Positions 7,034-63,670 of a DNA stretch of 64,000 bases are shown piece after piece (the first letter of the stretch is position 1; the number at the start of each line of letters is the position of its first letter). Origin of the DNA: an uncultured Gemmatimonadaceae bacterium. Its GTDB lineage: Bacteria; Gemmatimonadota; Gemmatimonadetes; Gemmatimonadales; Gemmatimonadaceae. The translations under genes were made by a program, and so were the position numbers. The DNA lies in contig CAWBOC010000009.1 of the NCBI GenBank assembly GCA_963790305.1, positions 768,001 through 832,000 of the forward strand, given 5' to 3'. Below the pieces are notes generated by a model. That model searched no databases and had not been told where the DNA came from. It was given only the letters and a program-made list of their open reading frames with translations.

Positions 7034-7119
7034 GATCGAGGATGTCGAAGGTGTCGAGGTGATCGAGGAGAGGCAACGAGGTGTCCTCGATTACCTCGAC
7101 GACCTCGACACCCTTGACC
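7034..7119. repeat. Inverted tandem-repeat element, 9-mer family 1 (GTCGAGGNN)
   Basis: gatcgagga-tgtcgaagg-tgtcgaggt-gatcgagga, 14-nt spacer, then tcctcgatt-acctcgacg-acctcgaca-cccttgacc. Confidence 0.85.
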
Positions 7120-7168
7120 ACTTAGGCCCGTTGCGTTGCCCTAGCGCGGGTCGCCAGTTTTCCCGCAC

Positions 7169-8356
7169 ATGTTGAAATCGACACCATTCCACCCGCGCAC
7201 CGCCGCGCTGATGGAAGCACAGCAGTGGCGGCGCTGGTCGGGGTTTCTCGTGGCGAGCGCCTACGAGATGTCGCACGAGCGCGAATACCACGCGATTCGC
7301 AACTCGGCGGCGCTCTTCGACGTGTCTCCACTCTACAAGTACCATGTGCGAGGCCGCGACGCGACGCGCCTGCTCGACCGCGTCGTGACGCGCAACGTCG
7401 CCAAGTGTCAGCCCTGCCAGGTGATGTACACCCCATGGTGCGACCCGCGCGGAAAGGTGATCGACGATGGAACGCTGCATCGCTTCGGGGAGGACAATTA
7501 TCGCCTGACCTCGGCCGACCCCAACATGCGCTGGCTCCACCAGAACGCGCGGGGCATGCAGGTGGAGATCGAGGATGCATCGGAGCGCGTGGCTTCCCTC
7601 TCGCTCCAGGGCCCGCTGTCACGGACCATTCTCGAGCATGCGATCGGGCGCGACCTGGGATCACTGAAATACTTCCGCCTCACCAACGCCACGGTCGCGG
7701 AGGTGCCGGTCGTGATCTCACGAACCGGCTACACCGGCGATCTCGGCTACGAAGTGTGGATGGATGCCGGTGACGCTCTTCCGGTGTGGGACGCGCTGAT
7801 GGCGCACGGAAAGCCATACGGGATCACTCCGGCGGGGATGCTCGCCCTCGACATCGCGCGCATCGAAGCGGGGCTCATTCTTCTCGACGTCGACTACGTG
7901 TCCGCTCGTAAGGCGCTCATCCCGGGTCAGCTCTCGTCCCCCTTCGAGCTCGCGCTGGCGTGGACCGTCTCGCTCGACAAGCAGCCATTCAACGGCAAGC
8001 AGGCGCTCGCGCAGGAGAAGGCCGAGGGCCCTTCCTGGTCGCTCATGGGTCTCGAGATCGACTGGCTCACCCTCGAGCCGCTGTACGAGAACATGGGACT
8101 CGCCCCGAGGGTGGCCGCGGCCGCCTCACGGGTGAGCGTGCCGGTGTACGACGGCTCGAAGCAGGTGGGCTACGCCACGAGTAGTACCTGGTCGCCGCTC
8201 CTCAAGCGCTACATCGCGCTCGCGCATCTGGAGGCATCAGCTGCGCGACCGGGCAAGACGCTCGAGTTCGAGATCACCGTCGAGCACCGGCGCAAGCGCG
8301 CCGAGGCGCGCGTTCGCAAGCTTCCGTTCTACGACCCCACCCGGAAGCGCGCGTGA
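7169..8356 (+). CDS. Aminomethyltransferase (GcvT-like) family protein
   Basis: ALFDVSPL, GKVIDDG, LSLQGP, SRTGYTGDLGYE, ARIEAG. Confidence 0.88.
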   Translation: MLKSTPFHPRTAALMEAQQWRRWSGFLVASAYEMSHEREYHAIRNSAALFDVSPLYKYHVRGRDATRLLDRVVTRNVAKCQPCQVMYTPWCDPRGKVIDDGTLHRFGEDNYRLTSADPNMRWLHQNARGMQVEIEDASERVASLSLQGPLSRTILEHAIGRDLGSLKYFRLTNATVAEVPVVISRTGYTGDLGYEVWMDAGDALPVWDALMAHGKPYGITPAGMLALDIARIEAGLILLDVDYVSARKALIPGQLSSPFELALAWTVSLDKQPFNGKQALAQEKAEGPSWSLMGLEIDWLTLEPLYENMGLAPRVAAAASRVSVPVYDGSKQVGYATSSTWSPLLKRYIALAHLEASAARPGKTLEFEITVEHRRKRAEARVRKLPFYDPTRKRA

Positions 8357-9972
8357 AGAACGGGAAGGTGGACGCCATCATCATCGGCGCTGGGCATAAC
8401 GGGCTCATCTGCGCCGCGTACCTCGCGCGCGCCGGCAAGAAGGTGCTCGTGCTCGAGCGTCGGCACATCGTCGGCGGTGCGGCGGTCACGGAGGAGATCG
8501 TTCCGGGATTCAAGTTCTCCGAGTTCTCGTACGTCGTGAGCCTCTTGCGGCCGGAGATCATTCGCGAGCTCGACCTTCCAGGGCATGGCCTCCAGATCCT
8601 GCCCCTCGAGAGCACGGTCACGCCGATGCTCGACGGGAACTATCTCGCCGCGTGGGCGGATCACGACGAGACCCGTCGCGAGCTGTATCGACATTCACCC
8701 CGCGACGCCGACGCGTACGACGAGTTCGGCATCCTGATGCACCACATGGCGCACGCGGTGAAGCCGATCATCGGCATGATGCCACCCGATCCCGCATCGC
8801 TGTCCCCGAAGGAGCTGCTGTCTCTCGGCAAGCTGGGCGGACACATGCGATCGCTCGGGGCGCGGAAGTTCTACGCGCTGCACAAGCTCATGACGATGAG
8901 CTCGGCGGACTATCTCGACGAATGGTTCGAGACCGACGTGCTCAAGGCGACGAAGTCCGCGAGCGGGATCATCGGGACGTTCATGGGACCGCGCTCGCCC
9001 GGCTCGGCGTACGTGCTGCTGCATCATTACATGGGCGAGATCGACGGCGCCTTTCGCGCGTGGGGATTTCAGAAGGGCGGCACCGGCGGAGTGAGCGATG
9101 CGATCGCCGGGGCCGCGAAACAGCTGGGCGCAGAGATCAAGCTCGAGGCGCCGGTCGGCCGCGTGATCGTGAAGAATGGGCGCACGACGGGCGTCGCGCT
9201 CGAGAACGGCGACGAGTATCACGCCGACATCGTCGTGTCGGGGCTCGATCCCAAGCGGACCTTCCTCAAGCTCGTCGAGGAGCGCGAGCTGCCCGAGGAC
9301 TTCGTCGCCAGCATTCGCCGGTTCAAGACGCGTGGCTCGTCAGGCAAGGTGAATCTGGCGTTGTCGGAGCTGCCGCGCCTCACCTGCATGGAACCGGAGA
9401 ACATTGGCCGCTGGGGTGGGGTGCCCATTCCCGCCGAGCGGTATCTTCGCGGGGCGATCTCGATCAGCCCCACGATGGACTACGTCGAGCGCGCCTACGA
9501 CGACGCCAAGCACGGCTCCTTCTCGAAGCGTCCGTACATGGACGTCGTCATCCCGTCGATGATCGATCCCGGAATGGCGCCGCCAGGCCAGCACGTGATG
9601 TCGATCTTCTGTCAGTACGCGCCGTACGCGATCGACGGTGGGTGGGATGACGCGAAGCGCGAGGCGTTCGGAGACGCGGTCATCGACGCGCTCGCCGTGC
9701 ACGCGCCGAACATCAAGAACGCGATCATCGCGCGTCAGGTGCTGACGCCGGCTGATATCGAGCGCATCACCGGACTTACCGAAGGCAACATCTTCCAGGG
9801 CGAGCTCGCACTGGATCAGCTCTTTTTCCTGCGTCCGGCGCCGGGGTACGCGAAGTACCGTACGCCGGTCGATGGGTTCTATCAGTGCGGGTCAGGCACG
9901 CACCCCGGCGGCGGCATCATGGGCGCGTCCGGTCGCCTCGCGGCCCTGGCGATTCTCGGCGAGCGCTCATGA
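8353..9972 (+). CDS. Phytoene dehydrogenase-like NAD(P)/FAD-dependent oxidoreductase (COG1233/PYROXD2-like)
   Basis: IIGAGHNGLICAAYLA Rossmann motif; C-terminal CGSGTHPGGGIMGASG. Confidence 0.85.
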   Translation: MKNGKVDAIIIGAGHNGLICAAYLARAGKKVLVLERRHIVGGAAVTEEIVPGFKFSEFSYVVSLLRPEIIRELDLPGHGLQILPLESTVTPMLDGNYLAAWADHDETRRELYRHSPRDADAYDEFGILMHHMAHAVKPIIGMMPPDPASLSPKELLSLGKLGGHMRSLGARKFYALHKLMTMSSADYLDEWFETDVLKATKSASGIIGTFMGPRSPGSAYVLLHHYMGEIDGAFRAWGFQKGGTGGVSDAIAGAAKQLGAEIKLEAPVGRVIVKNGRTTGVALENGDEYHADIVVSGLDPKRTFLKLVEERELPEDFVASIRRFKTRGSSGKVNLALSELPRLTCMEPENIGRWGGVPIPAERYLRGAISISPTMDYVERAYDDAKHGSFSKRPYMDVVIPSMIDPGMAPPGQHVMSIFCQYAPYAIDGGWDDAKREAFGDAVIDALAVHAPNIKNAIIARQVLTPADIERITGLTEGNIFQGELALDQLFFLRPAPGYAKYRTPVDGFYQCGSGTHPGGGIMGASGRLAALAILGERS

Positions 9973-11567
9973 CCTACGACGTGATCGTCATCGGAGGCGG
10001 CGTCGCCGGCCTCACGAGCGCCGCGCTCCTCGCGAAAGCGGGTCGTCGCGTGCTCGTGCTCGAGCGGCGGGACGTGCTGGGAGGGCTGCATTCCACCGAT
10101 GAGATCGTGCCCGGCGTGCGCGGTGACGCGGTGGAGCACGATGTTGGCTGGATCCCATCTTCGGTCATGAAGACGCTCGAGCTCGACGAGCGCGCGCTCT
10201 CGCTGGTGCGTCCCGATCCGTCGGCCGTCTCGCTGCTTCCTGGCGGCGAGACCCTGACGGTGTGGACCGACCCCGCGCGCACGTCGAGCGAGCTGCAGCG
10301 GCGTTCACCTGCCGATGCGCGCGCATGGCGCGCCTTTGGCGAGCGCGTGAGCCGGCTCGCGGGATTTCTCGAGGCCATCTATGACGGTCCGGCACCGGAG
10401 CCCCTCGCGTCCGGAGCGACGGAGCTGCTCTCGATGCTCGGACTCGGCCGCAAGGCACGCTCGTTAGGGCGCGACGGGATCATCGACCTGCTTCGCACGC
10501 TGCCGATGAGCGTCGCGGACGTGCTCGATGAGACGTTCGAAAATGCCGCGCTGAAGGGGCTGATCGCGACATCCGGGGTCTCGCGTCTCGTTCAGGGGCC
10601 GAAGTCGGGCGCGACCGCGTTTCTGCTGGTGCACAACCACGTTGGCACGCCACCGGGCGCCATTTGCTCGCGGCTGATCGCCCGCGGCGGGCTCGGCGCG
10701 CTCGCCAAGGCGCTGGCCGACTCCGCGCGTGCGGCGGGGGCCGAGATTCGAACTGATGCGGCCGTCGCACGTATCGCGGCAACCGAGGACGGGGTCAGCG
10801 GCGTGATTCTCGAGGGTGGCGAAGAGATCGCCGCGACCACGATTCTGTCGACGCTCGATCCGCGCCGCACGTTGTACGATCTGATCGACCCGATCTACAT
10901 CGATCCGGAGCTTTCACAGGCGATCGGGACGGCGAGGTATCGCGGCGCGTGCGCGAAGGTGAACCTCGTGCTGGATGGATTGCCGCCCCTTTCCGAAGAG
11001 CTCCTGCGCGGTGCGCTGGTGGTCGCGCCGAGCATGTCGTACCTCGAGCGCGCCTACGATGCAGCGAAGTACGGGGGGATTTCCGAGCGGCCATATCTCG
11101 AGGCGCGCATCCCCACCTTGCACGACCCGTCACTCGCACCGGCGGGACGGCACGTGATGTCGGTGCTCGTGCAGTGGGTGCCGTATCGCCTGCGTGGCGC
11201 GGCCTGGGACAGCGCGCGGCGCGACGCGGTCGGGACTCTGGTCATCGACACGCTGGCGGACGTGCTCCCGGGCTTCGCGAAGCGCGTCGTCGCGAAGCAG
11301 GTGCTGACGCCGAAGGACATCGAGGACAAATACGGCGCGACCGAGGGCAGCTTGACCCACGGGGAGCTGACGCTCGACCAGATTCTGTTCATGCGTCCGG
11401 TGCCCGGTCTGTCGAGGCATGCGACACCGATTTCCGGGCTGTATCTTGGCGGACCGGGCACCCACCCCGGCAGCTCGATCGCATCGGCGGCACGCGCCGC
11501 AGCGGCGATCGGCGGGTCCAAGCGAGGGGCGCGCTCGCGGGCGCGCGCGAAAGCAGCAGCACGGTGA
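9969..11567 (+). CDS. Second, more divergent phytoene dehydrogenase-like oxidoreductase
   Basis: VIGGGVAGLTSAALLA; colinear with the upstream paralogue (KVNL, YLERAYDAAKYG, GELTLDQILFMRP); ATGA overlap. Confidence 0.82.
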   Translation: MTYDVIVIGGGVAGLTSAALLAKAGRRVLVLERRDVLGGLHSTDEIVPGVRGDAVEHDVGWIPSSVMKTLELDERALSLVRPDPSAVSLLPGGETLTVWTDPARTSSELQRRSPADARAWRAFGERVSRLAGFLEAIYDGPAPEPLASGATELLSMLGLGRKARSLGRDGIIDLLRTLPMSVADVLDETFENAALKGLIATSGVSRLVQGPKSGATAFLLVHNHVGTPPGAICSRLIARGGLGALAKALADSARAAGAEIRTDAAVARIAATEDGVSGVILEGGEEIAATTILSTLDPRRTLYDLIDPIYIDPELSQAIGTARYRGACAKVNLVLDGLPPLSEELLRGALVVAPSMSYLERAYDAAKYGGISERPYLEARIPTLHDPSLAPAGRHVMSVLVQWVPYRLRGAAWDSARRDAVGTLVIDTLADVLPGFAKRVVAKQVLTPKDIEDKYGATEGSLTHGELTLDQILFMRPVPGLSRHATPISGLYLGGPGTHPGSSIASAARAAAAIGGSKRGARSRARAKAAAR

Positions 11568-12739: not shown

Positions 12740-12854
12740 ACGGCAAAGATGTCAGATGTCAGAATACAGATTTCAGAGTTCAGACTGCTCGGGTCCTGGG
12801 CCTGCGAGTTCTGAATTCTGAATTCTGTATTCTGACATCTGACATCTTTGCCGT
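12740..12854. repeat. Inverted tandem-repeat element, 7-mer family 2 (TCAGA core)
   Basis: Perfect 31-bp terminal inverted repeat acggcaaagatgtcagatgtcagaatacaga / tctgtattctgacatctgacatctttgccgt. Confidence 0.95.
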
Positions 12855-15689: not shown

Positions 15690-15697
15690 CCTTAGGA

Positions 15698-15809
15698 ACG
15701 GCAAAGATGTCAGATGTCAGAATACAGAATTCAGAATTCAGAGTGCCCGGATCCTGGGCCGGCGAAATCTGAATTCTGAAATCTGTATTCTGATATCTGA
15801 CATCTTTGC
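15698..15809. repeat. Inverted tandem-repeat element, family 2
   Basis: acggcaaagatgtcagatgtcagaatacaga...tctgtattctgatatctgacatctttgc; near-copy of 12740-12854 including the spacer. Confidence 0.95.
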
Positions 15810-15820
15810 TTTTACTCGAA

Positions 15821-17539: not shown

Positions 17540-18214
17540 ATGGGAGCCGTCGCATTGCATCGCGGAATGCTCGTGCTTGGGCTGATTGCGTGTCGTGTCA
17601 TTCCCGAGCAGGAAGAGGGTCGCGTCGATACCAGCGCGCACGCCGACACGCAGACGATCGATCTCGCCGCTCCCCCACGCGAGCCTCCAGCTCTCGCCGA
17701 CACGCTCACCGCGCTCGACAACGCCGACTCGATTCGCCGGGACACGACGAACCCGCCCGTTCCGCAGGATGCGGAGCTGAGCGCGCTTGCAAAGACGCTG
17801 ACGATCCCCGTCGTCGGTGTGAAATCGGAAGATCTGCTGGATACGTTCAACGAGAAGCGCGGGGAGCGACGTCACGACGCACTCGACATTCCTGCGCCTC
17901 GCGGGACGCCCGTGCTCGCGGCGACCAACGGTCGTGTACTGCGGCTCTTCACGAGCGCGCGCGGCGGCTTGATGATCTACACCGCCGACTCGACGGAGCG
18001 CTTCGTACTGATGTACGCGCACCTCGACGGCTACGCCGACGGCGTCAGCGATAACGGCCCGCTCCGTCGCGGTCAGGTGATCGGCTATGTCGGGACGACG
18101 GGGAATGCGCCACCGAACGTGCCGCACCTGCACTTCGCGATCGCCCGTTCATCGGACGTCTCGCGTTGGTGGGAGGGGACGCCGGTGGATCCGTTGCCGT
18201 TACTGCGGAGGTAG
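17540..18214 (+). CDS. M23 family metallopeptidase (probable lipoprotein)
   Basis: HDALD (HxxxD), YAHL, PHLHF motifs; LIAC lipobox-like sequence. Confidence 0.88.
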   Translation: MGAVALHRGMLVLGLIACRVIPEQEEGRVDTSAHADTQTIDLAAPPREPPALADTLTALDNADSIRRDTTNPPVPQDAELSALAKTLTIPVVGVKSEDLLDTFNEKRGERRHDALDIPAPRGTPVLAATNGRVLRLFTSARGGLMIYTADSTERFVLMYAHLDGYADGVSDNGPLRRGQVIGYVGTTGNAPPNVPHLHFAIARSSDVSRWWEGTPVDPLPLLRR

Positions 18215-18296
18215 TCGAGGTGGTCCAGGCAGTCGAGGTGATCAACGTGAAGGCGCCTCGATCACGTCGACATCCTCGAAAACCTCGACAACCTTC
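18208..18296. repeat. Inverted tandem-repeat element, family 1, between convergent genes
   Basis: gtagtcgaggtggtccaggcagtcgaggtgatc...gatcacgtcgacatcctcgaaaacctcgacaacc; contains the M23 stop codon. Confidence 0.85.
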
Positions 18297-18948: not shown

Positions 18949-19677
18949 GTGACGACCGACCGAACGATTGTAGGAACCGCCATTCTCGCCGTGGGCCTCG
19001 TGCTGGCGGGATTGCTCGTGGGCGGCGGGTTCGCGAAGGGGCGCGACGCCGATCACTTCGTCACCGTGAAGGGAGTCTCCGAGCGCGAAGCACGAGCCGA
19101 CCTCGCGATCTGGCCGCTCGCCATCGTCGCCGCCGACAATGACCTGAGCCGCGCGCACGCGAGCCTGCTGCGCAGCGTGCGTGAGATCAAGACGTTCCTC
19201 GCCCGCAACCAGCTCGACACCACCGAGCTCACGCTCCAGCAGTTCGTCGTTTCCGACGCGCTCACGAACCAGTACGGCGGTGGGAACGTGACGACGCGAT
19301 TCGTGATCCGGCAGACGGTCGTCGTTCGCTCGACGCAGCCCGAACGCGTGGCGGCGGCAAGCCAGCGCGTGGGAGAGCTGGTGAGCGCAGGCGTCGTGCT
19401 CTCGTCAGGCGGCGAGTATGGGCCGGGTGGGCCGACCTACGTCTTCACCAAGCTCAACGACCTGAAGCCGCCGATGATCGCCGAGGCGACGGCGCGCGCC
19501 CGCGAGGCGGCCGAGCAGTTCGCTCGCGACGCGCGCAGCGAGCTTGGCGGCATTCGACGGGCGAACCAGGGGATCTTCGAGATCCTCCCCCGCGACCAGG
19601 CGCCGGGCATCTTCGAAGGGAACCAGATTCTGAAGACGGTGCGCGTGGTGTCGACGATCGAGTATCTGCTGGATTGA
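18949..19677 (+). CDS. SIMPL (DUF541) domain protein
   Basis: VTVKGVSEREARADLAIWP...IRRANQG...KTVRVVSTIEY. Confidence 0.85.
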   Translation: MTTDRTIVGTAILAVGLVLAGLLVGGGFAKGRDADHFVTVKGVSEREARADLAIWPLAIVAADNDLSRAHASLLRSVREIKTFLARNQLDTTELTLQQFVVSDALTNQYGGGNVTTRFVIRQTVVVRSTQPERVAAASQRVGELVSAGVVLSSGGEYGPGGPTYVFTKLNDLKPPMIAEATARAREAAEQFARDARSELGGIRRANQGIFEILPRDQAPGIFEGNQILKTVRVVSTIEYLLD

Positions 19678-20218
19678 GGCGCTAGAGGCGCTAAAGGCGC
19701 TAAAGGCGCTAACCACCGCGCGGTAGCAGACTCTGTTGCAGGCGGTACAAAAGAAAGCCGGTTCGTCGGGCCGCGTCCGCTGCCGCCTCAATCGCCGTTT
19801 CAGGGAGGTACTCGAGCAGCGTGATCGCTTCGAGGTGCGTCTCCAGCTCGCGCAGTGACCCTGACGCGATAGAGAGATGGCGAAGGTAATCCCCACGCGT
19901 GGAACGCCCGAACCCTTCAGCGATGTTGGCCGGAACCGAGACGGCGGCGCGTCGCAGTTGTGCAGCCAATCCGTATCGTTCCGATCCGGAAGCTGGCGAG
20001 CGACTCGATAGACTTCCACGAGCAGCAGCATGGTGTTCCGCCACGTGACGAGGTCACGGTGCGTCTTGTGCGACGGGCGGGAGCCAGACTGCTGTTGAGC
20101 GATCACGCCGGAGTATGAGGCCCTTTCGCGGACGAGATAGCATCGTTCAATCTCCAGCCGTACCTCCTCGGCGCAGCGCCTCTAGCGCCTCTAGCGCCTC
20201 TAGCACCTCTAGCGCTTT
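19676..20218. mobile_element. Putative element: four-helix-bundle gene enclosed by inverted arrays of the 9-mer (G/A)AGGCGCTA (family 3)
   Basis: Left arm of 4 units at 19676-19711; right arm of 5 reverse-complement units at 20174-20218; a single cargo gene lies between. Mobility is inferred, not shown. Confidence 0.55.
19709..20106 (-). CDS. Four-helix-bundle protein (23S rRNA intervening-sequence protein / Avd-like), one-base frameshift near 19985
   Basis: [25 protein letters not shown] in one frame continues as [47 protein letters not shown] in the next. Confidence 0.88.
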
Positions 20219-29464: not shown

Positions 29465-29513
29465 CCCGATCGAATGTATCGGGATTGCGGCGTGGACGTA
29501 ACCCCATTTGGGA

Positions 29514-29628
29514 AGAGGCGCTAGAGGCGCTAGAGGCGCTAAACGCGCTGGGGTCTTAGCGCATTCCAGCGGCTGCAAGCACCTGTGATCGTCGAGCGCC
29601 TCTAGCGCCTCTAGCGCCTCTAGCGCCT
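29514..29628. repeat. Inverted tandem-repeat element, family 3, without cargo
   Basis: (gaggcgcta)x3 ... (tagcgcctc)-type x4, with a spacer of about 50 nt. Confidence 0.92.
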
Positions 29629-29666
29629 GTTCACCTAACCCAGATCCCGCGCTACATTCCGCCTCC

Positions 29667-36280: not shown

Positions 36281-36703
36281 ATGAACGTCTCCTTTGCGCT
36301 CTTCTGCGACGCCGCCAATCTCTCCCAGGAGGGGAAGCTGAACATCCTCGGCGTCTTCAATGCGGTTCAGGTGGGGACGGTCCCCACGATTCATCCCCGC
36401 GCGCACCTGGTGGTGCGGTTCAAGGGCCGGCGCACCGACATCGGAACGCACTCGGTGGTGCTTCGCTGGACGGGGCCCGAGGGGAAAGAGCTCTGGTCGA
36501 GCGGCGGTGAGCTCGACGTCGGCACGCCGCCGGCGGGCGTGACCGAGATGGATCTCCCGTTGATCGCCGCGATCGATCTCCCGATCGAGACAACGGGCGC
36601 ACACACGATGACGATCGCCCTCGATGGCGCGAGGCAGGCTGACATCACGCTGCAGGTTCGGTCGGGGCCCGCCGTTGCGACGCCCGGAGGAATGATGAGC
36701 TAA
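36281..36703 (+). CDS. Hypothetical beta-sandwich protein (DUF6941-like)
   Basis: FALFCDAA...GKLNILGVF N-terminal motif. Confidence 0.75.
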   Translation: MNVSFALFCDAANLSQEGKLNILGVFNAVQVGTVPTIHPRAHLVVRFKGRRTDIGTHSVVLRWTGPEGKELWSSGGELDVGTPPAGVTEMDLPLIAAIDLPIETTGAHTMTIALDGARQADITLQVRSGPAVATPGGMMS

Positions 36704-36726
36704 GGGTGCTCACCTTTAGCACCCTT
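36702..36726. terminator. Hairpin between convergent genes; resembles a minimal family 3 unit
   Basis: aagggtgct ... agcaccctt 9-bp stem. Confidence 0.55.
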
Positions 36727-38914: not shown

Positions 38915-38952
38915 TGACGTGCGTCCTCCCTGGATCCTTTTAGTCTCAAACT

Positions 38953-39077
38953 AGGGTCAGGAGTCAGGAGTCAGGAGTCAGGGGGGATCAGGGAGTGGGT
39001 TACAGGAGAGAACGACCTCGCTCCTGACACCTCGACCCTGACACCCCCTGATCCCTGACTCCTGACTCCTGATCCCT
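38953..39077. repeat. Inverted tandem-repeat element, 7-mer family 4 (GGAGTCA)
   Basis: agggtcaggagtcaggagtcaggagtcagggg...ccctgatccctgactcctgactcctgatccct. Confidence 0.92.
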
Positions 39078-39082
39078 GTTTT

Positions 39083-50159: not shown

Positions 50160-50164
50160 GGTGA

Positions 50165-50252
50165 AGGGCGCTAGGGGCGCTAAGGGCGCTAGGAGCGCTA
50201 ATGTGGTTAGGGTTTCAGCGCCCTTAGCGCCCCCAGCGCCCTTAGCGCCCTA
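50165..50252. repeat. Inverted tandem-repeat element, family 3 variant (AGGGCGCTA)
   Basis: agggcgctaggggcgctaagggcgctaggagcgcta...cagcgcccttagcgcccccagcgcccttagcgcccta; supplies the Omp85 stop codon. Confidence 0.9.
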
Positions 50253-52717: not shown

Positions 52718-52746
52718 GGTCGCGGGTTAGGGAGAAAAGATTGCGG

Positions 52747-52870
52747 ACGCGAATGCGGAATTCGGAATGCGGATTCTTATGATTGACCTACGGGTATCGA
52801 CAGTTCATCACAACTATCCGCATTCCGCATTCCGCATTCGAGTTCCGCATTCGAGTTCCGCATTCGAGTC
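52747..52870. repeat. Inverted tandem-repeat element, 7-mer family 5 (GAATGCG)
   Basis: gcgaatgcggaattcggaatgcggat...atccgcattccgcattccgcattcg plus repeated ttccgcattcgag units. Confidence 0.9.
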
Positions 52871-55440: not shown

Positions 55441-55565
55441 AGGGGTCAGGAGTCAGGAATCAGCGGTCAGGGGGTGTCAGGGTGAAGGTTCGAGGAGAGA
55501 GCTCGCGCGATTCACAACCTCTTCCCTGACACCCCCTGATCGCTGACTCCTGACTCCTGACCCCT
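55441..55565. repeat. Inverted tandem-repeat element, family 4
   Basis: aggggtcaggagtcaggaatcagcggtcagggggtgtcaggg...ccctgacaccccctgatcgctgactcctgactcctgacccct. Confidence 0.93.
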
Positions 55566-55567: not shown

Positions 55568-56489
55568 ATGCTCTCCTTCGTCGCTCGCCGGCTCCTCCTC
55601 GCGATTCCCACGCTGTTCGGCGTTCTCGTCGTCGTCTTCCTGCTCCTGTACATCGCGCCGGGTGATCCGGTGATGGGAGATGGTCGGCGAGCGCGCGGAC
55701 GCCGAGACCATCGCGCGGCTGCGCGCGGAGCTGCGGCTCGACGATCCCGTTCCGGTGCAGTTCGCGCACTACGCCGGAGGAGTGCTCAAGGGCGACCTCG
55801 GAACATCCTACATCACCGGGCGGCCGATCGCGCGCGACATCCTCGAGCGGTTCCCCAAGACGTTGCAGCTTGCCACCGCCGCGATGCTGCTCGCCGCATC
55901 GCTCGGCATCACCATCGGCGTACTCAGCGCGCGACGGCCGGGCAGCACGTTCGACCGCCTGGCAATGGGCGGTGCCTACCTCGGCATTTCGTTCCCGGTC
56001 TACTGGGTGGGGTTGATCCTCATCCTCGTGTTCGCGGTGTCGCTGCGCTGGCTTCCGCCGTCCGGGTTTGGACGCATCGAGTATCTCGTCCTTCCCGCGC
56101 TTGCGTTAGGCACGCGGTCGATCGCCTTTCTCGCCCGCATGACGCGGTCGGCGATGCTGGAGGTGCTGGGCAGCGACTTCATTCGAACCGCGCGCGCCAA
56201 GGGGTTGCGCGAGCGGGTCGTGCTGGGGCGCCACGCGCTCCGCAATGCGCTCATCCCCATCATCACGGTGCTCGGCCTCGACTTCGGCTACTACCTCACC
56301 GGGAGCATCCTGACCGAGACGATCTTCTCGTGGCCCGGGATCGGTCGCTATGTAGTCAACGCCATCGCGCGCCGCGATCTCCCCGCGATTCAGGGCAGCG
56401 TCCTCTTCTTGAGCGTCGTCTTCGTGCTCGTCAACCTCGTCACCGATCTGCTCTACGCGAAGGCGGATCCACGGGTGCGGTACGACTGA
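55568..56489 (+). CDS. Peptide ABC transporter permease (DppB-like), frameshift near 55676
   Basis: RRLLLAIPTL...PGDPV, then next frame GDLGTS, IRTARAKGL, HALRNAL, ETIFSWPG, DPRV. Confidence 0.88.
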
Positions 56490-56493
56490 ATTT

Positions 56494-56620
56494 GGGGTCA
56501 GGAGTCAGGAGTCAGGGGTCAGGGGTGTCAGGGTTGGGGTGTCAGCAGAAGTACACGCAGTTCTCTCCTGCAACCCATACCCTGACACCCCCTGACCCCT
56601 GACTCCTGACCCCTGACCCC
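56494..56620. repeat. Inverted tandem-repeat element, family 4
   Basis: ggggtcaggagtcaggagtcaggggtcaggggtgtcaggg...ccctgacaccccctgacccctgactcctgacccctgacccc. Confidence 0.93.
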
Positions 56621-56624
56621 GAGT

Positions 56625-57650
56625 TCAGACGCCGGCCTCTTCCTTTACGCCGAAGACGGCCATGTGTGACGAGTGGCCCGGATTCACCTTCTTGTCCGGG
56701 TAGATCCAGTGCACGGCCTGGTTCACGGCGATTGCCGCTTCCGAGTAGCCGGTCGCAATCAGCTTCAGCTTCCCGGGATACGTCGTGATGTCACCCGCCG
56801 CCCAGATTCCCTGGCGGCCAGTCTCCATCGCGCTATTCACGACGATCTCGTCCTTCTCGAGACTGAGCCCCCACTCCGCCATCGTGCCGAGGTCGCTCAC
56901 GAAGCCGAGCATCGGCAGAATCGCATCGCAGTCGATCGCGACGGTGGTCTTGGCCTTGATGTCCTTGAGCACCACACCGGAGAGATTCTCGCCATTGCCG
57001 GTGATGTCCTGCAGCTCGTGGAAGGTGAGCATCCGCGCCCGCCCCTCTGCGGACGCCGCGCGAATCTCTTCGACGGTTGCCGCATGCGCGCGAAAGCGGT
57101 CGCTGCGGTGCGCGAGCGTGACTGACGAGGCGCGATCGAGCAGCTGATGCGCCCAGTCGAACGCCGAGTCACCGCCGCCGATGATGAGCACCTGCTTGCC
57201 ACGGAACCGCTCGGGATCGAGCACCCGATCGTGAATGCCCTTGCCGTACCAGGGCTCGGCGCACGGCTGCGGAAGCCGGCGCGGCGAGAACGCCCCGATG
57301 CCGGCGGCGATCACGATGGCCTTCGTCGGAAACCGGTCCGTTTCGGTGACCAGCGTGAAGGTCCCGCCGTCCTCCTCGAGGGAGACGACGCGCTGATCGA
57401 AATGCATGGGTGCGCCGAACTGCTTTGCCTGCTCGAGCTGCCCCGCCACGAGGTCCTTCGCCAGCACCCGAGGAAACCCCGCGACGTCAAAGATGTACTT
57501 CTCTGGGTAGAGGGCGGTCAGCTGACCCCCGGGTTCGGACAGCGCGTCGATGACCTGCGCGGAGACTCCGCGCATGCCTGCGTAGAAAAGGGCGAACAGT
57601 CCCGTGGGGCCGGCGCCCAAAATGGTGATGTCTTTAGGGTCGTGCTGCAT
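56625..57650 (-). CDS. TrxR-type ferredoxin--NADP+ reductase (YumC-like)
   Basis: GAGPTG, GGQLTALYPEKYIFDV, GGGDSA, YPGKLKLIATG, C-terminal HSS; no CxxC. Confidence 0.88.
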   Translation of the reverse strand: MQHDPKDITILGAGPTGLFALFYAGMRGVSAQVIDALSEPGGQLTALYPEKYIFDVAGFPRVLAKDLVAGQLEQAKQFGAPMHFDQRVVSLEEDGGTFTLVTETDRFPTKAIVIAAGIGAFSPRRLPQPCAEPWYGKGIHDRVLDPERFRGKQVLIIGGGDSAFDWAHQLLDRASSVTLAHRSDRFRAHAATVEEIRAASAEGRARMLTFHELQDITGNGENLSGVVLKDIKAKTTVAIDCDAILPMLGFVSDLGTMAEWGLSLEKDEIVVNSAMETGRQGIWAAGDITTYPGKLKLIATGYSEAAIAVNQAVHWIYPDKKVNPGHSSHMAVFGVKEEAGV

Positions 57651-57671: not shown

Positions 57672-57778
57672 AGACGTCAGGTGTCAGACGTCAGGGGATC
57701 AGTAGCCAGGGAAGCGCGACGTAGTTGTCAGTTCTGAATTCTGAAATCTGTATTCTGAACTCTGTCATCTTTGCCGTT
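57672..57778. repeat. Asymmetric repeat element: family 2 right arm with a divergent GTCAG left arm
   Basis: ttctgaattctgaaatctgtattctgaactctgtcatctttgccgtt matches the family 2 right arm; left side is gacgtcaggtgtcagacgtcagg. Confidence 0.75.
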
Positions 57779-58845: not shown

Positions 58846-58930
58846 AGGTCGTCGAGGATGTCGAGGATGTCCATGTGATCGAGGCGCCTTCACCTTGATC
58901 ACCTCGATCACCTAGACGACCTCGACAACC
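58846..58930. repeat. Inverted tandem-repeat element, family 1
   Basis: gtcgtcgaggatgtcgaggatgtc...gatcacctcgatcacctagacgacctcgacaacc; core is the reverse complement of the 18208 core. Confidence 0.87.
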
Positions 58931-59526: not shown

Positions 59527-59632
59527 GCGAATGCGGATTGCGGAATGCGGATTCGATGCATGCCAAGATGATTCCAACGTGTCGCGAGGCATCCCGACGT
59601 CCCAGAATCCGCATTCCGCAGTCCGCATTCGT
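59527..59632. repeat. Inverted tandem-repeat element, family 5
   Basis: cgaatgcggattgcggaatgcggattc...gaatccgcattccgcagtccgcattcg. Confidence 0.92.
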
Positions 59633-59640: not shown

Positions 59641-60723
59641 GTGCATTCAATCTCCCTCCCCACCTACGACGTTCTCGTCAAGCACGGCGCTCTCGCCAGC
59701 GTCGCCGACATCGCTCGCGCGGCCACGCGCGCCAATCGTTATGCGGTGATCACCGACAGCAACGTCGTGCGCGGGCACGCTGAGCGCGTCGTCCAGGCGC
59801 TGGGGTCGGTGGGGACGAGGACGTTTACGGTGCCGGCGGGGGAGGCCTCGAAGACTCGGGAGACATGGGCACGGCTCACCGATGAGCTGCTCGAAGCGGG
59901 CTTCGGGCGCGACGCGGCAATCATCGCCGTGGGCGGTGGCGTCATCGGTGACCTGGCAGGGTTCGTCGCCGCGACGTTCATGCGCGGAATCAAGTACGTG
60001 CAGGTGCCGACGTCCTTGATCGCGATGATCGACGCCTCCATCGGCGGCAAGACCGCCGTCGACACGCCGCGCGGGAAGAATCTCGTCGGCGCCTTCCACC
60101 AGCCTGCGGCAGTCCTCGCGGATCCGGCGGTGCTCGGCACGCTCCCGCCCGCGCATTTCCGCGCTGGACTCGCTGAAGCGCTGAAGCACGGCGTGATCGC
60201 CGACGCCATGTACCTCGAGCGAACGATCGCGGACACGCCGATGCTGCTCGAAGCGGCAACGCGCCGGGCCGACGCAACGGAGGCGCTCGTCGCCCGGAGC
60301 ATCGAGATCAAGGCCGAGATCGTGAGGCGGGACGAGCGCGAGCAGGGGCTACGTCAGGTGCTGAACTTCGGACACACGATCGGGCACGCGATCGAGGCGG
60401 CCTCGGGCTACACCCTCCTCCACGGCGAATGCGTCGCCGTTGGCATGGTGTACGAAGCGACCATGGCGGTGAAGATGGGAGTCGCCGGCCCCGGCACCGC
60501 GCGCGATGTGCGGCGCGCGGTAGACCGGGTCGGTCTTCCGACCGCGCTCCCCGCCGGCGTAACGATCGACCGCCTGATCGCCCTCATGCGCGCGGACAAG
60601 AAGGTCCGCTCCGGCGCGCTCCGGTTTGCGCTGCCGCGCGAGATCGGCGCGATGGCGAGCGGCGATGGGACGTGGTCGGTTCCCGTCAATGAATCGGTCG
60701 TTCGGGCGGTGCTGGCGGCCTGA
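59641..60723 (+). CDS. aroB: 3-dehydroquinate synthase
   Basis: GEASK, GGGVIGDLAGF, DASIGGKT, LNFGHTIGHAIE, HGECVAVG, DKK. Confidence 0.95.
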   Translation: MHSISLPTYDVLVKHGALASVADIARAATRANRYAVITDSNVVRGHAERVVQALGSVGTRTFTVPAGEASKTRETWARLTDELLEAGFGRDAAIIAVGGGVIGDLAGFVAATFMRGIKYVQVPTSLIAMIDASIGGKTAVDTPRGKNLVGAFHQPAAVLADPAVLGTLPPAHFRAGLAEALKHGVIADAMYLERTIADTPMLLEAATRRADATEALVARSIEIKAEIVRRDEREQGLRQVLNFGHTIGHAIEAASGYTLLHGECVAVGMVYEATMAVKMGVAGPGTARDVRRAVDRVGLPTALPAGVTIDRLIALMRADKKVRSGALRFALPREIGAMASGDGTWSVPVNESVVRAVLAA

Positions 60724-60817
60724 CGTCTCGATGAACGGTTGGTCCCGGAAGGGGGCACCTAACTTGCCAGAACCCCCTTCGATCGCTCCAACGGAGCGCA
60801 AACCCTCGGAGGCATGA

Positions 60818-60997
60818 ATGTCTTCGTTCTCGACGTACATCATTGGCTTCATCATTCTCATCATTGGTCTGGCGCTGGCGGCCTATCTGCTCAACGTGCC
60901 GGCAATGTGGATCGCCGTGGGAGTGGTGGTCCTGATCGGGATCGGGGTGCTTATGGCCACGAGCAGGACCAAGCCGCGAGATCCGCCGGCTGTGTAA
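60818..60997 (+). CDS. 59-aa two-helix membrane microprotein (below ORF-track cutoff)
   Basis: MSSFSTYIIGFIILIIGLALAAYLLNVPAMWIAVGVVVLIGIGVLMATSRTKPRDPPAV; GGAGG RBS. Confidence 0.75.
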   Translation: MSSFSTYIIGFIILIIGLALAAYLLNVPAMWIAVGVVVLIGIGVLMATSRTKPRDPPAV

Positions 60998-60998
60998 C

Positions 60999-61142
60999 TA
61001 GGGGTCAGGAGTCAGGAGTCAGGGGTCAGGGAAGGAAAGGCGCGGCAGCTTCGCTGCCGCGCTCATCGGATGAGGGCCGCTGGCGCGAAGCGCCGCGGCC
61101 CCTTTCCTTCCCCGACCCCTGACTCCTGACTCCAGACCCCTA
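60999..61142. repeat. Inverted tandem-repeat element, family 4, with branched internal hairpins
   Basis: taggggtcaggagtcaggagtcaggggtcagggaaggaaagg...cctttccttccccgacccctgactcctgactccagacccta-like arm; two GC-rich internal hairpins. Confidence 0.9.
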
Positions 61143-61285
61143 ACCTTTGATCCGCCAGATCCCCGGTTAACAACGCCACAGTTGACCTTTCAATGCCGGC
61201 GCTATTATCCTGCGCGTCCCCGACTGAGCTAGCCTGCACGACGGCCAACCGGCCCACACCATCACCTTCCATGTAAGGGGTGTGT

Positions 61286-62179
61286 ATGCAGCATGTGACG
61301 GAGAGCAGGTCCAAAGGTTACTTCCGTTCCTCTCCCTCCACCGCTTTCGACCAATACCTCCAGGACATTCAAAAGCTTCCTCTCATCGAGGACCCCGAAG
61401 AAGAGCGGCGACTCGCCCGCCGCGCGCAGAAGGGTGACGAGAAAGCCGCCGAGCGGCTCGTCACGGCGAACCTCAGATTCGTCATCTCGTACGTCAAGAA
61501 ATACCAGGGTCACGGCCTCGACCTCTCCGAGCTCGTTGCCATCGGCAACGAAGGACTCCTCAAGGCCGTCAAGAAATTCGATCCCGACCAGGGCGTGAAG
61601 TTCATCTCGTACGCCGTCTGGTGGGTTCGTCAGGCAGTGCTCAAGGCGCTCGCCGAGCAGACCCGATCCGTCCGCATCCCCCTCAATCAGAATTCGCAGC
61701 TCATCAAGCTCGCGCGCGCCGAAACGGTGCTCGCGCAGGTGCTGAAGCGCGATCCGACCGACAATGAGATCGGCCGGCTGATCGAGGAGACGCCCGACCA
61801 GGTGCGGGCTGCGCGCCAAATGTCCGCCACCGAAGTCTCGCTCGACGCTCCCATCGATCGCTCCGACCGCGAAGCCTCGACGCTCGGTGAGCGCTTCGTC
61901 GGCGTCGACGGCCGCGACATCGAGGACGTCACCGACTTCAAGCTGATGCGCGAGTTCATCGACCGCGTCTTCACCAAGTACCTCACCCCTCGCGAGCGGA
62001 AGATCCTCTACCTGTATTACGGGCTCGAGGAAGGCTCCGAGGCAATGACACTCGAAAAGATCGGCGCGCTCATGGGCGTCACGCGCGAGCGGATTCGTCA
62101 GATCCGGGAGCGTGCATTCGAGAAGCTGCGGGAGTCGCCCGACGGCCGGGCGCTGGCTGGATTCTGGAATTTCGCCTGA
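61286..62179 (+). CDS. RNA polymerase sigma factor, RpoD/RpoS-like, lacking region 1.1
   Basis: YLQDI (1.2), ANLRFV, FDPDQGVKFISYAVWW, SVRIP, TLEKIG..GVTRERIRQI. Confidence 0.92.
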   Translation: MQHVTESRSKGYFRSSPSTAFDQYLQDIQKLPLIEDPEEERRLARRAQKGDEKAAERLVTANLRFVISYVKKYQGHGLDLSELVAIGNEGLLKAVKKFDPDQGVKFISYAVWWVRQAVLKALAEQTRSVRIPLNQNSQLIKLARAETVLAQVLKRDPTDNEIGRLIEETPDQVRAARQMSATEVSLDAPIDRSDREASTLGERFVGVDGRDIEDVTDFKLMREFIDRVFTKYLTPRERKILYLYYGLEEGSEAMTLEKIGALMGVTRERIRQIRERAFEKLRESPDGRALAGFWNFA

Positions 62180-62266
62180 CCGGTCGTCAGCCTGACGAGA
62201 GGCGGGGGCTCGGCAATGCCGGGCCCCCGCTCTCGCATTCGGCACTCTCGCGTTATGTTGGGCACC

Positions 62267-62680
62267 GTGAGCTCCGAGCTGAATGCGCCGGCGAAGCCCA
62301 GCGTCCTCGTCATCGATGACGAGTCGACGATTCGCGCCGCGCTCCGCCGCTACTTCAAGCGTCGCGACTGGATCTTCGACGAAGCCGAAGATGGCGCGCG
62401 CGGGCTCGAGAAGATCCTCGCGCCGGGCGGCGACTATACCGCCATCATCTCCGATCTGCGCATGCCGGGCATGTCGGGAATGGCGCTTCACGACGAGCTG
62501 GCGGAGCGACGCCCCGAGCTGCTCGACCGGCTGGTGTTCTCGACCGGCGACGTCACCTCCAAGGACACGGCCGAGTTCGTGCAACGCACGCGATGCATCA
62601 TCCTCGAGAAGCCGTTCGAGTTGAGCAAGCTGGGTGAGACCCTCGAGCGCATACGGACCGCTACACCGCCTCGCCCCTGA
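62267..62680 (+). CDS. Single-domain response regulator
   Basis: LVIDDE, SDLRMPG, TGD, EKPF; start 62267 or 62255. Confidence 0.85.
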   Translation: MSSELNAPAKPSVLVIDDESTIRAALRRYFKRRDWIFDEAEDGARGLEKILAPGGDYTAIISDLRMPGMSGMALHDELAERRPELLDRLVFSTGDVTSKDTAEFVQRTRCIILEKPFELSKLGETLERIRTATPPRP

Positions 62681-63564
62681 CCGCCACCAGTCTTCCGCTG
62701 CTCATCAACGCCTCCGCGCCGCGCGCGCGAGAGGTGACCGAGGCCGTCCACAAGAGCGGGCTCTCGATCGAGGCGCGCGAGCTGCCCGCCGGGGAGCTGG
62801 GGCGCACGATCGAGGAGCTGGCGAAGAACGGCGTTAGGCGCGTGGCCGTCGCTGGGGGAGACGGCACCATTGCGATCGCTGCCGGCCTCGCGTCGAAGCT
62901 CTCCTTCGAGCTCGCCGTGATCCCGGGTGGAACGCTCAACCACCTTGCCACCGACCTCGGCATCCCGGACTCGCTCGAGGAGGCGCTGCGCGTGGCGATC
63001 ACCGGAGATGCACGACCGATCGACGCCGCCACCGTGAATGGCCAGCTCTTTCTGAACACCAGCTCGGTCGGCACGTACGTCACATTCGTCCGCATGCGGG
63101 ACCGCCTCGAGCGCTACCTTGGCTACCGGATTGCGAGCCTCGTGGCGGGCATTCGTCTCCTCCTTCGTCCGCGACTCTTCACCGTCGAGGTCGAGGTCGA
63201 AGGCCAAATGCGATCCGCCGTGACACCCCTCGTGTTCATCGGCGTCGGCGAGCGCGAGCTGAAGCTCCCGACACTCGGCGGCCGCGCGAAAGACGGCCGG
63301 CGTGGATTGCACCTGATGATCGTTCGCGGTCGATCCCCCGCGCGAATAGCGGCGCTGGCCTTCGCCGCGGCGGCACGCGGAACGCGATCTGCCGCGCAGA
63401 GTCCCGCACTCGACGCGTTCGTGGTAAATCGACTGACGATTCGAATGCGCCGCCCCCGAGGAAACGTCGCGACCAATGGCGAGCTTCACGCGATGTCGAG
63501 TCCGCTCGAGTATCGGTGGGTGCCGGGCGCGGTGAAGGTGGTACACCCGAGGTCGTCGAAGTAG
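62677..63564 (+). CDS. Diacylglycerol kinase (DAGKc) family protein; start uncertain
   Basis: LLINAS, AGGDGT, PGGTLNHLA, NGE. Confidence 0.82.
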   Translation: MTATSLPLLINASAPRAREVTEAVHKSGLSIEARELPAGELGRTIEELAKNGVRRVAVAGGDGTIAIAAGLASKLSFELAVIPGGTLNHLATDLGIPDSLEEALRVAITGDARPIDAATVNGQLFLNTSSVGTYVTFVRMRDRLERYLGYRIASLVAGIRLLLRPRLFTVEVEVEGQMRSAVTPLVFIGVGERELKLPTLGGRAKDGRRGLHLMIVRGRSPARIAALAFAAAARGTRSAAQSPALDAFVVNRLTIRMRRPRGNVATNGELHAMSSPLEYRWVPGAVKVVHPRSSK

Positions 63565-63670
63565 TCGAGGTCGTCGAGGTGAGCAAGGGAACGTCGTCGC
63601 CTCGATTACCTCGACGACCTCGACACCCTCGACGACCTCACATTGACCACCTCGAGCACCTCGAGCACCT
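63548..63670. repeat. Inverted tandem-repeat element, family 1
   Basis: gaggtcgtcgaagtagtcgaggtcgtcgagg...cctcgattacctcgacgacctcgacaccctcgacgacctc; contains the upstream stop codon. Confidence 0.87.

Follow-up and report, generated by a model that had tools for sequence, protein, structure and literature searches.

Inverted tandem-word hairpins and cassettes enclosing four-helix-bundle genes in a Gemmatimonadaceae genome

Inverted word arrays and a gene-bearing cassette in the window

The window examined here is a 64,000-nt stretch (positions 768001–832000 of contig C9) of the assembly of a Gemmatimonadaceae soil bacterium (G000; 4.31 Mb, 66% GC, 13 contigs, 94% complete). Its gene boundaries carry hairpin elements built from inverted arrays of short tandem words, and one such structure encloses a small gene for a four-helix-bundle protein (PF05635). 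These hairpins are probably gene-less members of families of cassettes that resemble the intervening sequences (IVSs) of 23S rRNA genes and that carry, as cargo, either a PF05635 gene or a gene for a PD-(D/E)XK protein of the GxxExxY type (PF13366).

The gene-bearing copy of an array family is referred to below as a master. The master in the window occupies positions 19676–20215, between a SIMPL-family gene and an unnamed open reading frame (ORF), and belongs to a 9-mer family (AGGCGCTNN). Its arms lie at 19676–19712 and 20175–20215; the segments 19676–19710 and 20175–20209 pair with a score of 27.5 and leave an inner span of 464 nt, and the first unit overlaps the stop codon of the SIMPL-family gene. 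The loop contains an ORF at 19709–20044 on the minus strand, the product of which matched TIGR02436, 'four helix bundle protein' (E = 1.4e-23), and PF05635 (E = 1.5e-22); because the latter match spans profile positions 26–102 only, the N-terminus may be short or miscalled. The best solved relative is 2GSC (X. campestris XCC0516; E = 1.1e-15), which was deposited with five chains. The first-pass annotation of this DNA had listed an element at 19676; the array exists, but it represents no more than the 5′ arm of a cassette of 540 nt, the enclosed gene of which had been missed.

That annotation had counted about 17 inverted tandem-array elements in five families. All 17 loci are present, at or a few bases from the positions it gave, and repeat searches of the window (a repeat finder and Tandem Repeats Finder, TRF) returned the described loci, with 3–5 tandem 7- or 9-mers, a spacer, and the reverse-complement array. 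Fifteen are inverted arrays of 7- or 9-mers, whereas the arms at 57672 are mismatched and 36702 is a one-unit hairpin. The five families were seen in the window and turned out to be part of at least nine in the genome. For the genome, TRF arrays with a period of 6–11 nt were joined to any reverse-complement partner no more than 300 nt away; this procedure detects 14 of the 17 loci and misses 19676, 57672, and 36702. When each window stretch was folded and compared with 200 shuffles, 14 of the 16 folded stretches had z-scores of −5.0 to −17.5, with none of the 200 shuffles as stable.

The 9-mer hairpins without a gene are located at 7036–7117 (GTCGAGGNN, in the family of the GAGGTCGTC master; arms 7036–7068 and 7085–7117; −56.8 kcal/mol, z = −7.8), 18209–18294 (GTCGAGGNN; arms 18209–18243 and 18256–18294; z = −8.1), 29512–29632 (AGAGGCGCT; 38-nt arms, 92% complementary; z = −8.7), 50164–50251 (AGGGCGCTA, in the gap between the tamA stop and the tamB start; z = −8.4), 58851–58930 (GTCGAGGAT; z = −5.0), and 63548–63670, where a GAGGTCGTC hairpin (63548–63639) is followed by a solo array (63648–63670; z = −8.5). 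Those built of 7-mers are located at 12740–12854 (TCAGAAT/GATGTCA with the termini ACGGCAAAG...CTTTGCCGT; 45-nt arms, 96% complementary; z = −17.5), 15694–15816 (the family of 12740, with variant units in identical order; 49-nt arms, 90% complementary; z = −13.9), 38948–39081 (GGAGTCA; 64-nt arms; −98.3 kcal/mol, z = −11.2), 52739–52865 (GAATGCG, with a 3′ side that continues as a 13-mer array; z = −6.7), 55441–55565 (GGAGTCA, between the dppA stop and the dppB ATG; 50-nt arms, 90% complementary; −101.3 kcal/mol, z = −12.6), 56483–56631 (GGGGTCA/GGAGTCA, in a convergent gap; −107.8 kcal/mol, z = −13.3), 59528–59631 (GAATGCG; 27-nt arms, 96% complementary; z = −9.3), and 60999–61145 (GGGGTCA, with a nested three-hairpin loop module; 51-nt arms, 90% complementary; −129.6 kcal/mol, z = −15.8).

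The element at 57672–57765 is degenerate (arrays 57672–57694 and 57732–57764; z = −0.4, with 68 of 200 shuffles as stable). Its arms fail to pair because they hold different words, the 5′ arm consisting of GACGTCA-type units and the 3′ arm of the complement of TTCAGAA-type units; in relatives, either word is found at this junction, on both arms. The one-unit hairpin at 36702–36726 (AAGGGTGCT...AGCACCCTT; 9-bp stem; −14.7 kcal/mol, z = −3.3, with 2 of 200 shuffles as stable) is possibly a shrunken remnant, and comparable shrunken forms occur at orthologous junctions of relatives.

Abundance, polarity, and genomic context of the hairpins

The genome-wide scan for inverted arrays that the first-pass annotation had proposed identified 1791 TRF arrays with a period of 6–11 nt and at least 2.5 copies in G000, or 1710 after merging. 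An inverted partner was present within 300 nt for 873 of the merged arrays, versus a direct partner for 16, and array pairs within 700 nt were inverted in 346 cases and direct in 15, a pattern well outside chance expectation. This corresponds to approximately 499 elements (median length, 92 nt), 231 of them with period 7 and 226 with period 9, which together make up 1.15% of the genome.

The elements have a constant polarity. Among the 346 inverted pairs, the array of the G-rich word formed the 5′ arm with two exceptions, identically on both strands; GAATGCG, for example, came first 75 times and its complement once. The number of words per arm is also constant, whereas the stem length is not: the median was 3.9 words in 7-mer arms and 4.0 in 9-mer arms, and 3–5 words were present in 902 of the 998 arms, although the TRF floor of 2.5 copies trims the low side of this distribution. 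Variant units were often mirrored in the opposite arm, sometimes with an offset of one unit, and units 1–3 from the base of the stem were nearest the consensus, the fourth and fifth being degenerate. Some words, such as GGGGTCA, contain G-runs, and most (e.g., GAATGCG, TCAGAAT, and AGGCGCTAG) do not.

Genes in G000 were called with a crude home-made codon-usage caller, so the distances to start codons are rough. Only 32 of the 499 elements were inside called genes, in agreement with the intergenic location noted previously, and the tandem, convergent, and divergent contexts that had been named, including tamA|tamB and dppA|dppB, were all found to be occupied. Elements were present in 151 of 500 convergent, 259 of 2703 co-directional (~10%), and 55 of 497 divergent gaps. 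In the co-directional gaps, the element began a median of 4 nt past the upstream stop codon (interquartile range, −1 to 20). The hairpin between tamA and tamB shares bases with the tamA stop codon and leaves 9 nt to the tamB ATG; between dppA and dppB, 2 nt separate the end of the hairpin from the dppB start codon at 55568.

Small genes enclosed by inverted arrays

When inverted arrays 300–6000 nt apart were searched for in G000, a few with spacers of 400–600 nt were found, and two of the spacers were similar to each other and encoded PF05635 proteins. A larger autonomous element was considered and rejected, as this search yielded only the cassettes of ~400–600 nt and chance pairs of GC-rich hexamers. 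Profile searches identified six PF05635 and four PF13366 (PDDEXK_3, GxxExxY) matches in G000, and all six PF05635 genes and all three assessable PF13366 genes, the fourth being at a contig end, lay between inverted arrays. As a control, 740 other small genes were examined, and such flanks were found for four, three of which were merely between two separate hairpins. PF05635 and PF13366 genes are the sole genes in G000 that share the termini of the elements. The full cassette is approximately 500–600 nt long and consists of inverted arrays of 7–10-nt words, with about four words per arm and the G-rich arm on the 5′ side, around the small gene.

Each of the nine masters in G000 has a different array family, with one master per family; the chance of nine random elements falling into nine different families is 0.008. 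The words of these masters are GGGGAGT, GGAGTCA, a TCAGAAT-type word, GAGGTCGTC, GAGGCGCTA (the window cassette), GAATGCG, CACAGAGG, CCGCAGATGG, and a GCGGAT 9-mer. Of the 499 gene-less hairpins, 423 (85%) matched one of these nine arm families. Hairpins of a master's word occurred in tens to hundreds elsewhere in the same genome, mostly directly past stop codons.

The association extends beyond this assembly. We compared nine related genomes of the genus (G000–G008), all of which except G000 are fragmented assemblies. PF05635 genes were present in all nine (2–10 each, 55 hits), and, when two hits located at contig ends and another below the threshold were left out, 52 of 52 examined genes were wrapped by inverted arrays with inner spans of 360–591 nt. 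Among the assessable PF13366 genes of the genus, 19 of 24 were flanked by inverted arrays with periods of 8–10 nt. In the phylum, PF05635 was found in 100 of 151 sampled genomes, a tally that takes in one unpublished genome (G082), the locus of which (L147) was excluded from the other results. At 26 of 28 PF05635 loci from 28 other genomes of the phylum, the inverted arms scored above the best of 20 shuffles per locus, with period 7 or 8 nearly throughout, and G exceeded C in the 5′ arm at 23 of the 28. A tblastn search of plasmids returned 21 records, mostly from Nostoc, Calothrix, and Anabaena. Five of six plasmid copies (those of Anabaena sp. 90, Calothrix brevissima, Geminocystis, Azospirillum lipoferum, and Gemmatirosa) had inverted word arrays; the copy on a plasmid of Nostoc PCC 7120 had a downstream array only, beside an ISL3 transposase gene.

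The PF05635 proteins are basic (median isoelectric point 10.3; n = 32). The X. campestris structure is a homopentamer of four-helix bundles, according to the available text of one report (PMC4990558), and the family has been likened to Avd in part of another (PMC10053308). In a tree of 32 proteins, the clades matched the flanking words: the five GGGCCAA proteins and the four TCAGAAT and GACGTCA proteins each formed a clade (both 100/100), and all nine proteins flanked by 9-mers fell into a single clade (94/99) with word-specific subclades.

Stationary masters and dispersed arrays in related genomes

A comparison of flanking sequences showed that the masters of one clade occupy the identical chromosomal locus in different genomes. 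Because they are syntenic, the masters were inherited and do not hop, and the protein clades match the words because the masters of a clade share a locus at which the word has changed in place together with the protein. One master locus carries AGGGTGCTC in G003, GAGGTGCTC in G002 and G007, and GAGGTCGTC in G001 and G005; another carries TCAGAAT in G000 and G004 and GACGTCA in G002 and G007. The single clade of the 9-mer-flanked proteins and the different words at one syntenic locus mean that the families are not unrelated; the array families appear to have diverged from a common stock. The proposal of the first-pass annotation that unrelated unit sequences had converged on one geometry is therefore not supported.

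The dispersed arrays were compared with the masters by counting threefold tandem occurrences of five words across the nine genomes. GGGCCAA counts of 174, 96, 142, 182, and 60 coincided exactly with the five genomes that hold a GGGCCAA master; the remaining four had 0, 0, 0, and 3 (0 in G000). For AGGGTCCTC, with up to three mismatches allowed, the counts were 261, 212, 176, and 149 in the four genomes with a AGGGTCCTC or AGGGTGCTC master and 0–13 in the other five. GAGGTGCTC was counted 174 and 157 times in the two genomes with its master, 57 and 34 times where the locus holds a related word, and 0–7 times elsewhere. GAATGCG reached 256 and 117 where its master was found and 1–10 in the others except G001, and GGAGTCA reached 389, 275, 235, 184, and 50 (G005) in genomes with its master. 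The counts of a family are thus highest where its master is present, strongly so for three families and with leakage for two, which contribute three exceptions.

Turnover at orthologous sites

In the comparison of loci, TamA of L001–L008 was 83–91% identical to that of the window, the next tier being at ~45%. The tamA|tamB junction held a 9-mer hairpin in all eight close relatives, with differing words: AGGGCGCTA in the window, AGGGTCCTC in L001, L003, and L008, GAGGTGCTC in L002 and L004, AGGGTGCTC in L005, GAGGGTGTC in L006, and GAGGTCGTC in L007. The loop of the window hairpin is alignable with those of L001, L003, and L008 although the arms differ. At eight further junctions, elements were mostly present, some being shrunken to one unit and some absent (the junction at 38953 had no anchors in any of L001–L008). 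The word at a junction differed between relatives, and once the period differed too. The three GGRGTCA junctions of the window all carry GGGCCAN in L001, where the outer units of the switched junctions are GGGCCAN and the inner units are still GGGGTCA. Together with the consensus-like units at the base of the stems, this is only suggestive of outer units newer than the inner ones.

The number of elements per locus was 2–7 in L001–L008. Among the 38 more distant loci (L009–L046), 30 had none, seven had one or two, and L016 had five, so the hairpin habit is not confined to the genus of the window. L016 is a Gemmatimonadaceae locus with a TamA identity of 46% and a GC content of 73%, and its five inverted-array elements lie within 13.7 kb. 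Four genome samples of the window's own genus contained 0.4–1.3 elements per 10 kb, with differing family spectra.

The site following the stop codon of the SIMPL-family gene (window position 19675) was compared in the eight genomes possessing this gene. An intact master was present in G000 and G004. G008 had a decayed master with an internal deletion and arrays grown to 8–9 units, G005 had a short hairpin of the master's own family, and G001 and G006 had a short hairpin of the GGGCCAA family. No element was present in G002 and G007, which had 24 nt instead, followed by identical downstream sequence. The stop codon itself varied with the element. The locus of the GGGCCAA master is occupied in G000 by a short G-rich relic together with an element that lacks a gene and belongs to another family.

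Interpretation and alternative explanations

Taken with the shared arms of most hairpins and masters, these observations make it probable that the hairpins are the gene-less members of IVS-like cassette families. The manner of their spread looks more like the rewriting of arms around existing hairpins than the insertion of whole elements, because the loops in the PF05635 families are unrelated to the master and the tamA|tamB loop is conserved while the arms differ. As a mechanism, the PF05635 protein, likely a pentameric ring like its solved relative, may read tandem words on a single strand, with approximately one word per subunit; this suggestion is based on the four or so words per arm at any word length, the basic proteins, and the pentameric structure of the relative. 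Such reading could, by copying, conversion, or selection, maintain the match between the master and the dispersed arrays. Whichever direction was transcribed, the G-rich-first polarity would put the binding strand before its complement. The long stems might, in RNA, act as 3′-end or RNase III processing hairpins, and on this proposal they would be tolerated inside operons.

Several results weigh against this reading. Seventy-six of the 499 hairpins matched none of the nine master families. The three exceptions to the co-occurrence of arrays and masters are sizeable: GAATGCG was counted 90 times in G001, where no master was found, and GGAGTCA, in genomes where its master was not found, was counted 115 (G001), 106 (G002), 16, and 1 times, the first two exceeding the count in master-holding G005. 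The co-occurrence counts are not independent tests because the nine genomes are kin and mostly fragmented. The loops seldom resemble the interior of the cognate master, which was the best match for 50 of 226 loops overall and, in the PF05635 families, for 10 of 80 (GGAGTCA) and 11 of 53 (GAATGCG), or about chance; only two PF13366 families resemble simple deletion derivatives (15 of 18 and 13 of 29). The cassette genes, PF05635 and PF13366, do not belong to any known transposase family, and G000 had no match to PF01797 (RAYT/Y1 transposase), for which a control search was positive in 6 of 14 genomes, or to PF00078 (reverse transcriptase). The comparison of orthologous intergenic regions recommended by the first-pass annotation brought out presence, absence, and word turnover between relatives, but no target-site duplication was seen by eye at the compared junctions, where truly empty sites are rare.

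Three specific routes were considered and dropped. Telomerase-like healing of two ends, as a source of the G-rich-first polarity, was abandoned for want of PF01797 and PF00078 matches, and a retrohoming route like that of diversity-generating retroelements for want of PF00078 in G000. A simple MITE (miniature inverted-repeat transposable element) model failed because the loops do not match the master interiors in the PF05635 families.

A broader proposal is held more tentatively, as a possibility that we do not yet favor. Ring-forming PF05635 proteins might be sequence-specific readers of 7–9-nt words, the protein and its arrays propagating themselves and writing hairpins behind hundreds of genes. 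The same system might also account for the abundance of heptamer repeats that has long been remarked on in bacteria: the STRR (short tandemly repeated repetitive) sequences of heterocystous cyanobacteria, the GGGAATC repeats of Xanthomonas, and the paired sites of Geobacter, with GxxExxY nucleases as a second, independent cargo of identical design.

Among the alternatives, the one that survives best, although we consider it unlikely, is that the hairpins are 3′-end structures made by the host (terminators or mRNA stabilizers) that grow and become uniform by replication slippage and hairpin-templated correction, the small genes being passengers in the loops of hairpins already present, without a role in their formation or upkeep. 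The start of the elements just past the upstream stop codon and their enrichment in convergent over tandem gaps agree with this explanation, as do the mirrored and sometimes shifted variant units, the loops unrelated to master interiors in the PF05635 families, and the large GGAGTCA families in genomes where no master was found. However, of 259 co-directional and 302 convergent-strand cases, only 19 and 2, respectively, had a TTTT within 12 nt after the 3′ arm, which bears out the earlier remark that most elements lack a U-tract, and the stems, with a mean of 40 paired bases and about −70 kcal/mol, go beyond the needs of termination. An intrinsic (Rho-independent) terminator, with its short GC stem and U-tract, was rejected on these grounds. 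The sense and antisense folds were equal (means of −69.7 and −69.6 kcal/mol; of 259 elements, the sense strand folded better in 129 and less well in 122; 529 and 503 G:U pairs, respectively) and therefore give no support for selection on one transcribed strand. The position past stop codons and in convergent gaps would suit a terminator, yet 55 elements are in divergent gaps. A host-made structure also does not explain why masters are syntenic and stationary, why whole families (GGGCCAA and AGGGTCCTC) are missing where the master is missing, why three junctions switched family together in L001, or how a decaying master came to be caught becoming a short hairpin at the SIMPL site. The hairpins are not plain terminators. 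The view of the first-pass annotation that a common spreading process, rather than ordinary termination, lies behind them gains from the rarity of U-tracts, the long stems, the turnover of families, the gain, decay, and loss at one site, and the cognate masters of 423 hairpins.

It is much less probable that the arrays are sites or structural signals for a host global factor, such as nucleoid proteins of the IHF/HU type or a G-quadruplex, with the cassette genes unrelated. The regular words, their fixed number of about four per arm, and the G-runs in some of them (GGGGTCA) would fit such a role, and the Geobacter (PMC2700814) and Xanthomonas (PMC4692102) repeats provide precedents in print, as far as the available texts of these reports go. 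Against it, many words have no G-run, one conserved factor would not explain at least nine words in one genome that differ between sister species, and the words track the cassette proteins. Finally, repetitive extragenic palindromes (REPs and REPINs) moved by a RAYT transposase, or ordinary MITEs of classical insertion sequences, would likewise be intergenic, palindromic, high-copy, and lineage-specific, but this origin is extremely improbable given the lack of PF01797 matches in G000, arms that begin with the family word (e.g., GAATGCG or GGGGTCA) and not with a GTAG or CGTC head, the lack of target-site duplications visible by eye at the compared junctions, and termini common only to PF05635 and PF13366 genes.

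Comparison with known systems

The closest counterpart of the window cassette is the IVS found in the 23S rRNA genes of Coxiella burnetii, Leptospira, and others, which, as described in the available text of the report, has a PF05635 (S23p) gene, a body of ~430 nt, and terminal inverted repeats forming a long stem; it is regarded as a selfish element, and its stem is cut by RNase III (PMC4990558). The cassette at 19676–20215, as distinct from the 16 gene-less loci, has the same gene family, size, and closed-stem design, a body of about 430–760 nt being taken as typical of such elements. In contrast to the IVS, it lies between protein genes and not in a helix of 23S rRNA (at Rfam gathering thresholds, there were no matches in the window, including none to rRNA), its arms are tandem arrays of 7–10-nt words, and each cassette is accompanied by tens to hundreds of gene-less copies.

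Two sets of published repeats resemble the hairpins; both are summarized from the available parts of their reports. In Xanthomonas campestris and X. axonopodis, Rehm et al. (2015) described GGGAATC tandem heptamers, mostly of four units, with 70–75 convergent pairs per genome (inverted, G-rich first) that were read as G-quadruplex formers; they are intergenic, 0–50 bp from or overlapping stop codons, and the genes concerned differ between the two related species (PMC4692102). The elements of G000 share the four-word preference, the G-rich-first inverted pairing, and the proximity to stop codons, a likeness of a descriptive class rather than of a defined family. The Xanthomonas repeats have one word and no link to a protein gene is described in that text, whereas here at least nine words of 7–10 nt, most of them without G-runs, are each tied to a small gene. 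In Geobacter metallireducens, the 'global regulator binding sites' of classes 1–3 (Aklujkar et al. 2009) are paired tandem words on opposite strands at variable distance, comprising four 8-mers GTTGCTYN, three TCTCCGTS[Y], and five 7-mers MTYCTGA, with one pair between proB and proA; they were taken, without a test, for sites of IHF/HU (PMC2700814). The TCAGAAT-type word found here has MTYCTGA as its complement, and no gene-bearing copy is mentioned in the accessible part of that report.

The hairpins also resemble MITEs, which are non-autonomous offshoots of DNA transposons, in being short, in having many intergenic copies, and in having terminal inverted repeats in common with a longer gene-bearing copy, and two of the PF13366 families share internal sequence with their master as well. 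They differ in that there is no transposase, target-site duplications were not seen by eye, and the masters are stationary; moreover, the PF05635 families share arms only, with unrelated loops that can be older than the arms. TRAP of Bacillus and HutP are homo-oligomeric rings that read tandem RNA words, which are triplets with spacers, and thereby control a hairpin. By analogy, with about four words per arm and a five-chain relative as the basis, the PF05635 protein might form a ring that takes one short word per subunit and whose binding to the 5′ strand competes with the stem; no relation of sequence or fold to TRAP or HutP is claimed. The resemblance of PF05635 to Avd of diversity-generating retroelements, as given in part of one source (PMC10053308), is matched here by the basic character of the proteins, but G000 has no reverse transcriptase (PF00078).

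PF05635 and GxxExxY proteins are widespread orphan families, and, to our knowledge, the paired tandem heptamer repeats described over decades from several phyla have had no explanation. The present data tie the two together, in that most of the hairpin families have a word in common with one small gene; they give the proteins a concrete candidate function, the reading of tandem words, and provide a source for ~1% of the G000 genome. Dispersed repeats that change in step with a stationary master are not explained by classical transposition or simple slippage. For annotation, hairpins exactly between stop and start codons inside operons, as at tamA|tamB and dppA|dppB, may cut or insulate transcripts. 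What this window adds is the set of approximately 500 gene-less copies, 85% of them assigned to nine masters, the stationary state of the masters, the co-occurrence of families with masters by genome, with its exceptions, the series of states at one orthologous site, the constant word count, and PF13366 as a second cargo. A literature search, which covered few subscription journals, found no paper linking PF05635/S23p or GxxExxY genes to tandem-word arms or families of gene-less hairpins and none joining the Xanthomonas pairs, the Geobacter classes, and the rRNA IVSs. Paired heptamers (PMC4692102), the Geobacter classes (PMC2700814), and ORF-bearing IVSs (PMC4990558) are already in print; judging from the available texts, the novelty lies in joining them into one system.

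Nested loop modules and other observations

The loop module of the 60999 element (61032–61110) is bounded by GGAAAGG on the 5′ side and CCTTTCC on the 3′ side; between them lie two GC hairpins, the first with a TTCG and the second with a GAAG loop, separated by CTCATCNGATGAG, and the whole folds as a three-way junction. The same module recurs within the arms of other word families, in L001 and L002 at the 56494 junction and in L003 and L007 at the 60999 junction. Several GAATGCG hairpins in G000 have a common second nested module, GTAAGACC...GAGGGCTCCGAG...CTCGGAGCCCTC...GGTCTTAC, which forms hairpins within hairpins and was found outside the window at C10:293924, C13:17608, C2:9214, C2:103370, and C2:150597.

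On the 3′ side of the 52747 hairpin, four copies of the 13-mer TCCGCATTCGAGT, equal to one heptamer word plus 6 nt, occupy 52817–52869 without a partner on the 5′ side. The solo array at 63648–63670 (CACCTCGAG), the complement of a GAGGTGCTC-family word, lies just outside the GAGGTCGTC hairpin and looks like an arm left behind by an older, sister-family element. [quoted passage not shown]

Outside the window, the remaining gene of the control set encodes a SET-domain protein (C1:799–1296, minus strand) and lies within C1:662–1350 of G000 between inverted TCAGAAT-type arms with the ends GGCAAAGA...TCTTGCC and an inner span of 656 nt; it may represent a third kind of cargo or a captured gene. 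At C10:59300–59560 of G000, the locus at which five sister genomes keep the GGGCCAA master, there is a gene-less element of the PF13366 GCGGAT family of ~240 nt with non-repeated outer inverted ends, GCATCCAGGTTCAAAG...CTTTGAACCTGGATGC. On plasmid pANA02 of Anabaena sp. 90 (L167), a four-helix-bundle gene with AGGTGAC arrays lies between cas6 and cas4 of a CRISPR locus.

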